From Bdellovibrionota bacterium (GTDB lineage Bacteria; Bdellovibrionota_C; UBA2361; OMII01): 64,000 bases of DNA. The notes under the pieces are model-generated. The model was given only the letters and a program-made list of their open reading frames with translations, was not told the origin of the DNA and did not search any database. Shown here piece after piece: positions 4,191 through 6,299 of the stretch. The first letter of the stretch is position 1; each line of letters begins with the position of its first letter. The stretch covers positions 5,744-69,743 of the forward strand of contig JBIKKT010000005.1 of the NCBI GenBank assembly GCA_044360195.1, in the 5' to 3' direction. A program made the translations under genes and the position numbers.

Positions 4191-6299
4191 TTACCTATAT
4201 TCCAATTGCCACATACCGATCTGCTCAACTGACATGCCAGCTTCAAGCTCTTCATATGAAGCCACAAAAAGCCTACGCGACGCAGAGCGAAGAAGCGAGA
4301 GCACTTTCACACGAATATCCTGCGAGCACAGTAGGCACACGGGTGTTATGCCATGGTCAAGCGCTGGCTTAACTACACGCTCCAACCCAGACCGAAGCGC
4401 CTCAAACATATCTTGTTCAAGAGCCAAAGGCAGCGCACGATTCTCGTACTCCGCATTTCGAATGACCTCTTCAACCTCTTGAGACAGGTATACAACTCTA
4501 AAACTGCCTGCTCTACCAACGATACGCTGAACTATTTGACGCCGACGGACGTGACGCACATGTCGAACGACATCATCAACATCAACTGTACTATCGTTGT
4601 CGAGTGTAATGCCCTGAGCGGAGCAATAGGATGCAACGGCCTCGATCATCGATCGAAAATCACGGATACTCACTCCTTGCCGAGCTAGTTCCTGCAGCAC
4701 CTCGGTCAGCTTGGATACGGAGACAAACTCCCGACCAAACCCTTCGGCCACCAGCCCAGGAAAGCGTTTTTCAACTTGCCGTAATTGAGAGTGAACATCG
4801 GTAACCGAGAGAAACTCATCTGGATGAGCGAGACAAAACGCCGCCAAACGACTGATAATAAATTCAAAAAAATCTAGCGTCCTGATTCCAGCTCCCTCTG
4901 CCATCTTCTTCAACACGGGCGTATTGGGAGCCCAAAAGACGCGGTGCGTCGAAAGAGGGTGATCTTCCTCGCGCAGGACCGAGAGACCAACCAGTGGAGC
5001 TTGCAGGCTCGACATCTCAACCAGAACCGCATCTTGAGGAACAACACCGGAGAGCGTCTCAACACCCGAAACCACCACGCTATACCCGCATGGAGGCAAC
5101 AGGGGCCCCGGGACCACATGCAGATCAGGAAGCTGAATACCAACATCTTGAAAGAATGATTCTCTGAACGATTTCCACACCTCCGTGAACAGCTGTGAAT
5201 TGGCCCTAAAAGTGCGGTACAGCACAGTATGATCGAGGGCAATAGTAAGTACGGAATCGCCTCCGTTACTATCAAGGTGTCGACCTTCCCCGGACATCAC
5301 CCCTACAGCACCGCCCCCCTCATCGTTGCCAAGCGAACCCACTGGAGCACGCCTCCTGTTGCGAACCAGGAGCATTGCTGCCGCAAACGCGAGCCCCGCC
5401 ACCACCAGAAACGGCACCGCCGGCACTCCTGGGATCAACGCAAAGATCACGAGTATAGTCGAGGTCACCACAAGAACAACGGGCTGAGCAAAGAGCTGAG
5501 AATGAAGATCCATTCCCAAGCTGGAGCTGTCGCCTGCTGACACTCGCGTCACTATGATTCCAGCACAGATCGATGTAAGCAAGCTTGGGATCTGAGTGAC
5601 TAGCCCATCACCGACTGTCAGCATGGTGTACGTCTGCACAGCATCGTTGAATGACAAACCGCCAAGCAGGCCCATTGAGATACCGCCTACTATATTGGCG
5701 ACGATGATGAAAAATCCCGCTATGGCATCACCCTGCACGAATCGCATCGCACCGTCCATGGAGCCGTAGAGCTGCGACTCTCGGCGTAGCTCGTCTCTCT
5801 TTCTACGAGCCTCTTCGCTTGAGATGACACCGGCGCGGGCGTCGTTATCGATCGCCACCTGCTTTCCTGGGAGCGAATCGAGCGCAAATCGAGCCGCGAC
5901 CTCAGAAACACGCGCTGCTCCTTTTGAAATCACGATAAAATTGACGATGGTAACGATGGTGAAGATGATTACGCCCACCACCACCTCTCCTCGGATCAGG
6001 AAGGTTCCAAAGGCCTCAATCACTCGACCGGCATCTCCCTGGCTTAGAATCAGTCGCGATGACGCGACATTTAAACCCAATCGAAAAAGCGTACTAAGCA
6101 GAAGAACGATAGGGAATGTATACAGCGCGCTTGAGTGAGAGACATAGAGACCTACCAGTAGAAGCAAGATAGAGAATGAGATGTTGAATACGAGCAAGAC
6201 ATCGAGAAGCTGCGTGGGGAGCGGCACTATCAGCATGGCGGCTATTGCCACCACAAAACCCATCAGAACTAGGTCGGCGTATTTGAAGGACCTATTCAT
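4191..6299 (-). CDS. flhA: FlhA/SctV-family type III export-apparatus gate protein (both TM and cytoplasmic domains present)
   Basis: Near-canonical FlhA motifs: LNVASSRLIL, FLIRGEVVVGVIIFTIVTIVNFIVISKGAARVSEVAARFALDSLPGKQVAIDNDARAG, YGSMDGAMRFVQGDAIAG, LTVGDGLVTQIPSLL. C-terminal FlhA_C-like VSIRDFRSMIEAVAS. The gap to tadC is 21 bp. Confidence 0.85.
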   Translation of the reverse strand: MNRSFKYADLVLMGFVVAIAAMLIVPLPTQLLDVLLVFNISFSILLLLVGLYVSHSSALYTFPIVLLLSTLFRLGLNVASSRLILSQGDAGRVIEAFGTFLIRGEVVVGVIIFTIVTIVNFIVISKGAARVSEVAARFALDSLPGKQVAIDNDARAGVISSEEARRKRDELRRESQLYGSMDGAMRFVQGDAIAGFFIIVANIVGGISMGLLGGLSFNDAVQTYTMLTVGDGLVTQIPSLLTSICAGIIVTRVSAGDSSSLGMDLHSQLFAQPVVLVVTSTILVIFALIPGVPAVPFLVVAGLAFAAAMLLVRNRRRAPVGSLGNDEGGGAVGVMSGEGRHLDSNGGDSVLTIALDHTVLYRTFRANSQLFTEVWKSFRESFFQDVGIQLPDLHVVPGPLLPPCGYSVVVSGVETLSGVVPQDAVLVEMSSLQAPLVGLSVLREEDHPLSTHRVFWAPNTPVLKKMAEGAGIRTLDFFEFIISRLAAFCLAHPDEFLSVTDVHSQLRQVEKRFPGLVAEGFGREFVSVSKLTEVLQELARQGVSIRDFRSMIEAVASYCSAQGITLDNDSTVDVDDVVRHVRHVRRRQIVQRIVGRAGSFRVVYLSQEVEEVIRNAEYENRALPLALEQDMFEALRSGLERVVKPALDHGITPVCLLCSQDIRVKVLSLLRSASRRLFVASYEELEAGMSVEQIGMWQLEYR

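Follow-up and report, generated by a model that had tools for sequence, protein, structure and literature searches.

Introduction

[quoted passage not shown] Kil and T3SS* are encoded at separate loci; they co-localise, and Kil recruits T3SS* to prey contacts (Herrou 2025, PMC12075869). Three of the four pilus tips require T3SS* for killing (PMC12075869; Seef 2021, PMC8460266), and Kil-like systems have already been reported in Bdellovibrionales (PMC8460266). No described tad-sctV or tad-T3SS operon was found in the literature searched. The present work deals with a gene for a type III export gate of the FHIPEP family, the family of flagellar FlhA and injectisome SctV, which lies inside a Tad (Flp) pilus operon in a stretch of 64,000 nucleotides from a Bdellovibrionota bacterium (contig JBIKKT010000005.1); the whole stretch is referred to below as the window.

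In deeper relatives, composite operons run on from the tad genes into the sct core, and the comparisons made here are therefore best read as showing in the tad-linked FHIPEP protein the SctV that serves a minimal type III core, one that has no needle and whose genes are fused to those of a Tad pilus.

An intact export-gate gene

The gene under study occupies the following position:

4191..6299, minus strand: FHIPEP-family export gate, SctV-like, 702 amino acids (aa), identified with Pfam PF00771 and NCBIfam

The open reading frame (ORF) is uninterrupted over 702 codons from an ATG start at 6299, and its product matched Pfam PF00771 with 595 bits (cut-off 29.1, E=2e-178) from position 2 to position 655 of the 657 in the profile, so that a preliminary description of the window was right in calling the FlhA/SctV-family gene complete. 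With the NCBIfam equivalog models, the protein scored 579 bits for SctV (TIGR01399, cut-off 692) and 524 bits for FlhA (TIGR01398, cut-off 772), and by these cut-offs it falls outside both equivalogs. Among solved relatives, the best match was Yersinia SctV (7alw, 380 bits), with FlhA chains at 320 bits or below.

An AlphaFold2 model of the protein was built with 36 homologues and had predicted local distance difference test (pLDDT) values of about 87-91 across residues 350-702. When the cytoplasmic domain was searched with Foldseek, CdsV_C, FlhA_C, InvA_C and MxiA_C were matched with E=1e-18 to 1e-14, and target TM-scores of 0.75-0.85 were obtained against the cytoplasmic domains of CdsV, FlhA, InvA, MxiA and SctV. 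The C-terminal four-subdomain cytoplasmic domain is present in the predicted structure.

In the alignment, D45, R85, R94, R147, R154, D158, K203 (as R), D208, D249 and R270 were all kept in the window protein, and the charged residues of the gate were near-invariant across 47 representatives of its clade. We take this charged set, from D45 to R270, to be the one that mutagenesis of Salmonella FlhA identified as critical for the gate. The preliminary description had credited the protein with essentially every conserved FlhA motif, and this held for the charged residues of the transmembrane (TM) domain and for the fold. It did not hold for the cytoplasmic chaperone pocket, where D456/F459/T490 of Salmonella FlhA_C are replaced by H/S/S in a region in which the alignment is unreliable.

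The ratio of nonsynonymous to synonymous substitution rates (dN/dS) between the window gene and an 88%-identical homologue (L001; the loci compared are given L numbers) was 0.047 overall, with values of 0.032 in the TM domain, 0.042 in the cytoplasmic domain and 0.20 in the linker; the synonymous rate of this pair is near saturation, which makes the values rough, yet they are far below 1. Such values point to a gene under strong purifying selection and not in decay.

By family, residues and fold, the window protein is a bona fide member of FHIPEP, and it is probably a functional SctV-type export gate. The labels 'FlhA' or 'type III secretion protein V' given to such genes mask a distinct system.

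The operon in the window

The other genes of the unit, in operon order, and the trigger factor gene that comes after them are listed below; the gate gene stands between those of the TadC-like protein and the pseudokinase.

15152..16366, minus strand: PP2C-type Ser/Thr phosphatase, 404 aa, first gene of the unit (Pfam PP2C, E=1.2e-17)
14027..15136, minus strand: FHA-domain protein, 369 aa (Pfam FHA, E=3.7e-7)
12519..13994, minus strand: Hanks-type Ser/Thr protein kinase, 491 aa (Pfam Pkinase, E=1.8e-54)
11264..12508, minus strand: CpaE/TadZ-like ParA/MinD-family ATPase, 414 aa (AAA_31 and TIGR03815 CpaE_hom, below cut-off)
10886..11053, minus strand: Flp pilin, 55 aa, …ERG/ASLVEYALLVALIAVV… (Pfam Flp_Fap, E=2.2e-10, above cut-off)
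9924..10775, minus strand: CpaB/RcpC periplasmic protein, 283 aa (TIGR03177, 124.8 bits, cut-off 71; Pfam RcpC)
8236..9786, minus strand: CpaF/TadA-type secretion ATPase, 516 aa (T2SSE, E=2.4e-31; TIGR03819, E=4.6e-62)
7249..8232, minus strand: TadB-like platform protein, 327 aa (Pfam T2SSF, E=4.6e-14)
6321..7241, minus strand: TadC-like platform protein, 306 aa (Pfam T2SSF, E=2.6e-11)
1805..4165, minus strand: membrane-anchored pseudokinase, 786 aa (alignment with homologues; no Pfam match in the window copy)
1267..1800, minus strand: thioredoxin-fold lipoprotein, TlpA-like, about 177 aa (Pfam Thioredoxin_8, AhpC-TSA)
6-1040: trigger factor (tig), after the thioredoxin-fold gene in operon order

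The Tad/Flp core set (Flp pilin, CpaF/TadA, TadB, TadC and CpaB/RcpC) is thus present in the window, and the gate gene is tightly packed into it, as had been described. The tadC stop codon at 6321-6323 is followed by 21 bp that contain a Shine-Dalgarno sequence, AAGGAAG, and then by the FHIPEP start codon at 6299; after the FHIPEP stop codon at 4191-4193, 25 bp separate the gene from the pseudokinase ATG at 4165 on the same strand. A promoter and terminator of its own, which the preliminary description had named as features that would set the gene apart from tadC, were not in evidence, since neither the 21-bp nor the 25-bp gap holds a promoter-like or terminator-like site. A promoter-like site, a consensus match only, was located at 16431-16402, directly upstream of the PP2C gene. 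The FHIPEP gene is probably co-transcribed with the tad module and with the kinase/phosphatase/FHA module.

Conservation of the tad linkage

A homologue search with the window FHIPEP protein gave at least 120 clusters, the best 120 of which are all at least 48% identical to it, and a scan of a genome collection gave a single match, L001, a 3-kb contig of a Bdellovibrionota metagenome-assembled genome (MAG) on which the FHIPEP gene stands between the last part of tadC and the first part of the pseudokinase gene. Gene contexts were read at 12 loci whose FHIPEP proteins are 37-88% identical to that of the window. The relatives are all uncultured, being represented by MAGs or metagenome contigs, and their labels are coarse (Bdellovibrionota, Oligoflexia, 'Deltaproteobacteria' or 'Pseudomonadota'). 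By FHIPEP identity, the nearer tad-linked loci are L002 and L003 (63-65%), L004 and L005 (57%) and L006, from an Oligoflexia MAG, and L007 (both 50%); the farther ones are L017 (46%), L019 (41%), L018 and L021 (39%) and L026 (38%).

The order cpaE-like, flp, cpaB, cpaF, tadB, tadC, FHIPEP and a 680-850-aa pseudokinase/HEAT-like gene was common to the contexts read, and at none of the related loci did any gene other than tadC stand directly upstream of FHIPEP. The genes for an S9 peptidase and tig, clpP, clpX and lon were also kept as chromosomal neighbours in several loci, tig being the one that the window retains. That the FHIPEP gene came to lie there by chance or was inserted recently was considered and is ruled out by this order, kept across 37-88% identity, together with the kept chromosomal neighbours.

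As a control, 80 generic FlhA/SctV metagenome loci with 32-38% identity, taken from among the matches listed, were inspected. None of the 80 had TadB, TadC or CpaF within 10 kb, and in most of them an FlhB/SctU-like gene stood beside the FHIPEP gene. Set against the tad-linked contexts (12 of 12), these loci indicate that the linkage is real and meaningful, as the preliminary description had supposed.

A neighbour-joining tree of 156 FHIPEP proteins was calculated with midpoint rooting; the tree is crude and supports distinctness from other groups, not a branching order. In it, the tad-linked FHIPEP proteins (47 representatives at 50% identity) and a sister group of 22 formed one superclade of at least 69 clusters at 50% identity, and the one member of the sister group that was checked, P0160, is tad-linked too. 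The superclade stood apart from the FlhA proteins of E. coli, Ralstonia, Granulicella and Rossellomorea and also from the SctV proteins of Yersinia, Shigella, Bradyrhizobium and Desulfovibrio, so that the phylogeny that had been suggested as a check sets the protein apart from flagellar and injectisome clades alike. These comparisons place the window gene in a distinct deep FHIPEP lineage, in which the gene belongs integrally to a Tad (Flp) pilus operon, and point to a tad-embedded SctV gate that is spread through a large group of uncultured Bdellovibrionota-like bacteria.

A different setting was seen on a plasmid of Rhizobium leguminosarum (L016, NZ_CP018231.1, 188528-190462), where a 644-aa 'FlhA' is flanked solely by hypothetical proteins, outside any recognisable T3SS or flagellar context; similar matches occur on R. 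phaseoli plasmids.

Composite operons and sctV-less cores

In L018, the operon goes on past the pseudokinase gene, on the same strand and with short gaps, into a T3SS core. The genes follow in the order FHA/YscD-like (SctD-like), a second FHA/YscD-like, SctJ, a 76-aa protein, FliMN_C (SctQ-like), SctR, SctS, a 207-aa membrane protein in the position of SctT, the SctU N-domain, an 82-aa protein and a TPR protein; SctJ, the SctQ-like protein, SctR, SctS, SctU_N and the FHA/YscD-like proteins were named by NCBIfam and Pfam, SctJ matching TIGR02544 with E=4.6e-25. The same composite unit was found in L021, an NCBI MAG, and in L026. The longest contig was 12,420 bp both for FHIPEP P0135 and for SctR P0409, which is consistent with a shared contig. 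The composite order, that is, Tad unit, sctV, pseudokinase/HEAT gene and sct core, would be the ancestral arrangement, surviving in deeper relatives.

Core blocks of the same type that lack sctV were also found: L020, on an 896-kb contig; L022, with sctR, sctS, sctT and sctU only; L023-L025; and a 13.8-kb contig of JGI sample 3300059473, a lake metagenome, for which the gene list covers the block and its flanks. Neither the window nor the composite and core blocks that were read yielded a needle protein SctF, a secretin SctC, a translocon or an ATPase complex SctN/L/O. The check for ATPase and stator genes covered L018, L021, L026, L020 and the 13.8-kb contig; CpaF is the sole secretion ATPase of the unit. 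A coiled-coil ORF of 118-160 aa in some loci gave a faint FliJ match (E=0.028).

Two further features recur in the cores. The SctU/FlhB homologue consists of the N-terminal membrane domain only (215-225 aa) and is devoid of the NPTH autocleavage/substrate-switch domain. The small ORF after sctU (82-98 aa, motif YARYEKV) was considered as a split-off SctU C-domain and rejected, as it has no NPTH and no Bac_export_2 match. In every core block, sctJ is followed by a gene for a 72-78-aa protein with the motif (L)S/QxRERALVAxAVLLDGxDA and no Pfam match, after which the coiled-coil ORF comes in some loci; the sctV-less core blocks share this ORF of 72-78 aa, with its motif ERALVAxAVLLDGxDA. The nearest SctR sequences outside the tad-linked family are annotated as Myxococcota SctR. 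The positions of the two features are:

L018, 21030-21704: N-domain-only SctU
L021, 11567-12244: N-domain-only SctU
L020, 11458-12105: N-domain-only SctU
L022, 4374-5021: N-domain-only SctU
L018, 18249-18479: 72-78-aa protein after sctJ
L021, 8723-8953: 72-78-aa protein after sctJ
L020, 4311-4547: 72-78-aa protein after sctJ
L023, 6600-6824: 72-78-aa protein after sctJ
L026, 18473-18691: 72-78-aa protein after sctJ

Split loci

In the sublineage of the window, the operon ends after the pseudokinase and the thioredoxin-like lipoprotein and is followed by housekeeping genes. No other T3SS or flagellar gene was detected in the 64 kb, either by Pfam searches of ORFs of at least 150 aa or by tblastn with SctD, SctJ, SctR, SctU and FlhB, in agreement with what had been described, and no SctD, SctJ, SctR or SctU was found within 10 kb of the gate gene in L002-L007, L017 and L019. 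Alone among the T3SS genes, sctV stays between tadC and the pseudokinase gene in all eight of the eight split loci.

A core without sctV and a tad operon carrying the sole sctV fit together, and therefore the core is probably encoded elsewhere in the genome of the window, a proposal to which we give rather good odds. JGI sample 3300059473, the source of the 13.8-kb sctV-less contig, also holds tad-FHIPEP contigs of the window sublineage (P0011 and P0053). Tetranucleotide composition of L023-25 correlated with that of the window at 0.76-0.78 and with that of L002 at 0.80, which, the duplicate contig L003 aside, were the top values in the rows of the window and of L002; L020 paired with L004 (0.78) and L022 with L006 (0.67). 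The preliminary description had started from the premise of a gate divorced from any type III apparatus. That premise is probably wrong at the level of the genome and the lineage, given the operons of L018, L021 and L026, which run into the sct core, and the sctV-less core blocks in relatives.

Other proteins of the unit

At each of the 12 loci read, FHIPEP is followed by the pseudokinase gene, of which L001 shows only the first quarter. The N-domain of its product is kinase-like but degenerate, a single TM helix lies at about residues 315-335, and the C-domain is all-helical and HEAT-like; in the window copy, the HRD and DFG aspartates are missing by alignment, and homologues weakly match Pkinase and HEAT_2. 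A single-sequence AlphaFold2 model had a mean pLDDT of 46.8 and was used for helical content only.

The thioredoxin-fold gene likely starts at the ATG at 1800, 4 nt past the pseudokinase stop codon, the longest ORF starting at 2034. A lipoprotein-like signal (…VFVGC) is present in the protein, and its active site, WCPRS, is of the monothiol type. Its gene follows that of the pseudokinase in L002, L004-L007, L017 and L019, that is, in split loci only, and in the composite loci sctD takes its place.

The Ser/Thr kinase is kept at the same position in L002-L004, L007, L018 and L026, and the L018 counterpart of the window FHA protein also weakly matches Yop-YscD_cpl. CpaF is 64-78% identical across related loci; its residues 1-100 form a Ser/Pro/Ala/Thr-rich low-complexity extension, probably disordered, that is a plausible target of the operon kinase and FHA proteins. 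The most conserved protein of the operon is the CpaE/TadZ-like ATPase, with 60-76% identity where FHIPEP has 37-63%.

Proposed explanation and its alternatives

We assign a probability of roughly 60% to the explanation in which the gate serves as SctV in a T3SS core that has no needle and is expressed, and probably also assembled, together with the Tad pilus under Ser/Thr-kinase control, like Kil/T3SS* of Myxococcus. Since the mechanism is modelled on the proposal made for Kil and T3SS* of M. xanthus, its steps are given as what would follow from that model. The unit would have broken after the pseudokinase gene in the window sublineage, with sctV staying with the tad genes and the rest of the core residing elsewhere. 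In the inner membrane, an SctV nonamer that surrounds the SctRST(U) core would act as a proton-driven protein gate, and translation of SctV from the tad mRNA would tie its amount and timing to those of TadB, TadC and CpaF. The kinase/PP2C/FHA module may switch assembly on, for example upon cell contact, through threonine phosphorylation read by the FHA proteins. The T3SS core would then export cargo over the inner membrane, to be received, displayed or expelled by the Flp pilus, and the TM pseudokinase/HEAT protein and the thioredoxin-fold lipoprotein are candidate coupling or maturation factors. By the same model, the unit might have a role in predation.

Several points weigh against this explanation. 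Co-transcription is deduced solely from the 21-bp and 25-bp gaps. The Tad part is locally incomplete, with no minor pilins in the window and neither a secretin (CpaC/RcpA) nor a prepilin peptidase (CpaA/TadV) among its ORFs of at least 150 aa; these may be encoded elsewhere. Pfam gave no match to an FHA domain in the window CpaF, and KilF has one; the analogy with Kil is drawn from a different phylum. The case for a core elsewhere in the genome comes solely from occurrence in the same sample and from base composition, not from a shared contig or bin. The SctR family in question has about 75 clusters at 90% identity, mostly singletons, and is outnumbered by the at least 120 clusters of window-sublineage FHIPEP proteins, many of them multi-member. 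The long FHIPEP contigs (90-236 kb) size-matched no longest contig among the SctR matches listed. The core may have been lost in some or many genomes of the window sublineage.

Taken jointly, the two gene sets might even form a single hybrid transmembrane machine, in which the SctV ring docks on TadB/TadC/CpaF and the Flp pilus replaces the needle; we regard this as possible, though doubtful. Docking would perhaps be through the pseudokinase/HEAT protein, in a core that has neither an ATPase of its own nor the SctU switch domain. If this were true, a class of secretion machinery not recognised before would be widespread among Bdellovibrionota-like bacteria that are uncultured, and it would represent the ancestral state of a task for which Myxococcus uses two separate loci. 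In general terms, a hybrid or coupled export machine, which the preliminary description had proposed as one of its options, is the kind of reading that the evidence favours.

It seems unlikely that the link is one of shared regulation only, in which SctV would belong to a core encoded elsewhere and stand in the tad operon for joint induction, with no physical or mechanistic coupling. Membership in an operon can prove no more than co-expression, evolution has been able to separate the Tad part from the T3SS part (L020, L022, L023-25), and M. xanthus keeps its two systems at separate loci (PMC12075869), where, however, Kil recruits T3SS* and both co-localise. Sharing an induction signal also leaves the split loci to be explained: because sctV alone stays beside tadC in all of them, a specific relation to the Tad platform is suggested instead of generic co-regulation.

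We consider it quite improbable that the gate is an orphan, the core having been lost in the window sublineage and the nonamer now serving TadB, TadC and CpaF as an ion-conducting platform, scaffold or regulator. The lack of T3SS core genes in the window and within 10 kb in L002-L007, L017 and L019 would agree with it, as would the scarcity of SctR-family clusters relative to FHIPEP clusters, the lack of size matches between long FHIPEP contigs and the SctR matches listed, and the fact that, wherever the operon is split, the gene remains beside the tad and pseudokinase genes. Nevertheless, sctV-less cores of the same type occur in the same lake samples with a composition matching that of window-sublineage contigs, and L020-L004 and L022-L006 pair in composition as well. 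The cytoplasmic domain, which docks substrates, is constrained like the TM domain (dN/dS 0.042), which is hard to explain without type III secretion substrates, and no FHIPEP protein is known to function without FliPQR/SctRST.

An ordinary flagellar flhA relocated beside tad genes, in favour of which it can be said that some sources label homologues 'flagellar biosynthesis protein FlhA' and that many Bdellovibrionota carry flagella, is largely refuted and most improbable, as the protein scores higher with the SctV than with the FlhA model, both scores being below the cut-offs, branches away from the four FlhA references and has no flagellar neighbours, the composite relatives carry SctJ/SctD-type rings and not FliF, FliG, rod or hook genes, and the tad linkage is ancient and not a recent relocation; the preliminary description had likewise doubted it.

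By analogy, the two machines that Myxococcus uses together for prey killing appear genetically fused in these deeper relatives. A large natural family with both gene sets in one operon provides independent comparative-genomic evidence for a single functional unit, and the retention of sctV with tadC upon breakage of the operon is further evidence of the same kind. The family also names candidates for the coupling, namely SctV, the TM pseudokinase/HEAT protein and the kinase/PP2C/FHA switch, and it offers a minimal T3SS core for study, the blocks read being without ATPase, needle and SctU switch domain.

Other genes of the window

A polysaccharide-synthesis cluster, apparently unrelated to the operon, occupies 28088-40139 on the minus strand and comprises a sugar transferase, several GT4/GT2 glycosyltransferases and an unannotated 707-aa protein. 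A DNA-repair neighbourhood at 51763-57568 contains an ATP-dependent DNA ligase, an adjoining MBL-fold protein, and then a photolyase-related protein and a photolyase. At 61244-62827 on the plus strand, a 527-aa protein with LysM, GH108 lysozyme-like and peptidoglycan-binding domains is encoded; it is a candidate secreted cell-wall hydrolase, potentially worth attention should the organism be a predator.

Comparison with known systems

Compared to canonical Tad/Flp loci (Caulobacter cpa, Aggregatibacter tad), the window operon has Flp, CpaB/RcpC, CpaE/TadZ-like, CpaF/TadA, TadB and TadC genes in the usual order, but neither the operon nor the window contains the secretin CpaC/RcpA, a prepilin peptidase, TadD or TadE/F/G, and the FHIPEP gene, the pseudokinase and the kinase/PP2C/FHA module are inserted into the unit.

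With flagellar FlhA, the window protein shares the family, the fold and the critical TM residues. It differs in scoring lower against FlhA than against SctV, in its position in the tree apart from the four FlhA references, and in the absence of flhB, fliPQR, fliF and fliG beside the gene, whereas FlhB-like genes flank most control loci.

The injectisome SctV proteins (YscV/LcrD, MxiA, InvA, CdsV) have the same full-length FHIPEP architecture, TM charged residues and cytoplasmic fold, but the window protein scores below the cut-off of their equivalog and branches apart from them in the tree. Its gene is surrounded by Tad genes, where an injectisome locus would have sctW, sctN and similar genes (compare L008-L010), and nothing nearby encodes a gatekeeper, needle, secretin, translocon or ATPase. 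The genes sctR, sctS, sctT, sctU, sctJ and sctD are absent from the window and present in L018, L021 and L026.

The closest described counterpart is Kil/T3SS*, by a likeness of gene content and proposed logic. Here, sctV, and in the deeper relatives the whole core, lies inside the tad operon, in contrast to the separate loci of M. xanthus. T3SS* has SctN, for which no gene is present in these blocks; SctU is without its autocleaving C-domain; the window CpaF is without the N-terminal FHA domain of KilF; a Ser/Thr kinase, PP2C and the TM pseudokinase/HEAT protein are part of the unit; and the phylum differs, the MAGs here being Bdellovibrionota-like. Because its CpaF has no FHA domain, its blocks have no SctN and its genes are organised in a fused manner, the system is not filed as a member of Kil/T3SS*. 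By analogy, it nevertheless appears to work like it: in both, the pilus machine is of the Tad/Flp type and has as its partner a T3SS basal body devoid of needle, secretin and translocon; numerous FHA-domain proteins are associated, the window operon holding an FHA protein together with a Ser/Thr kinase and PP2C; the closest SctR relatives outside the family carry Myxococcota annotations; and the logic proposed for both is that cargo leaving through the T3SS core is delivered or exposed by means of the pilus.

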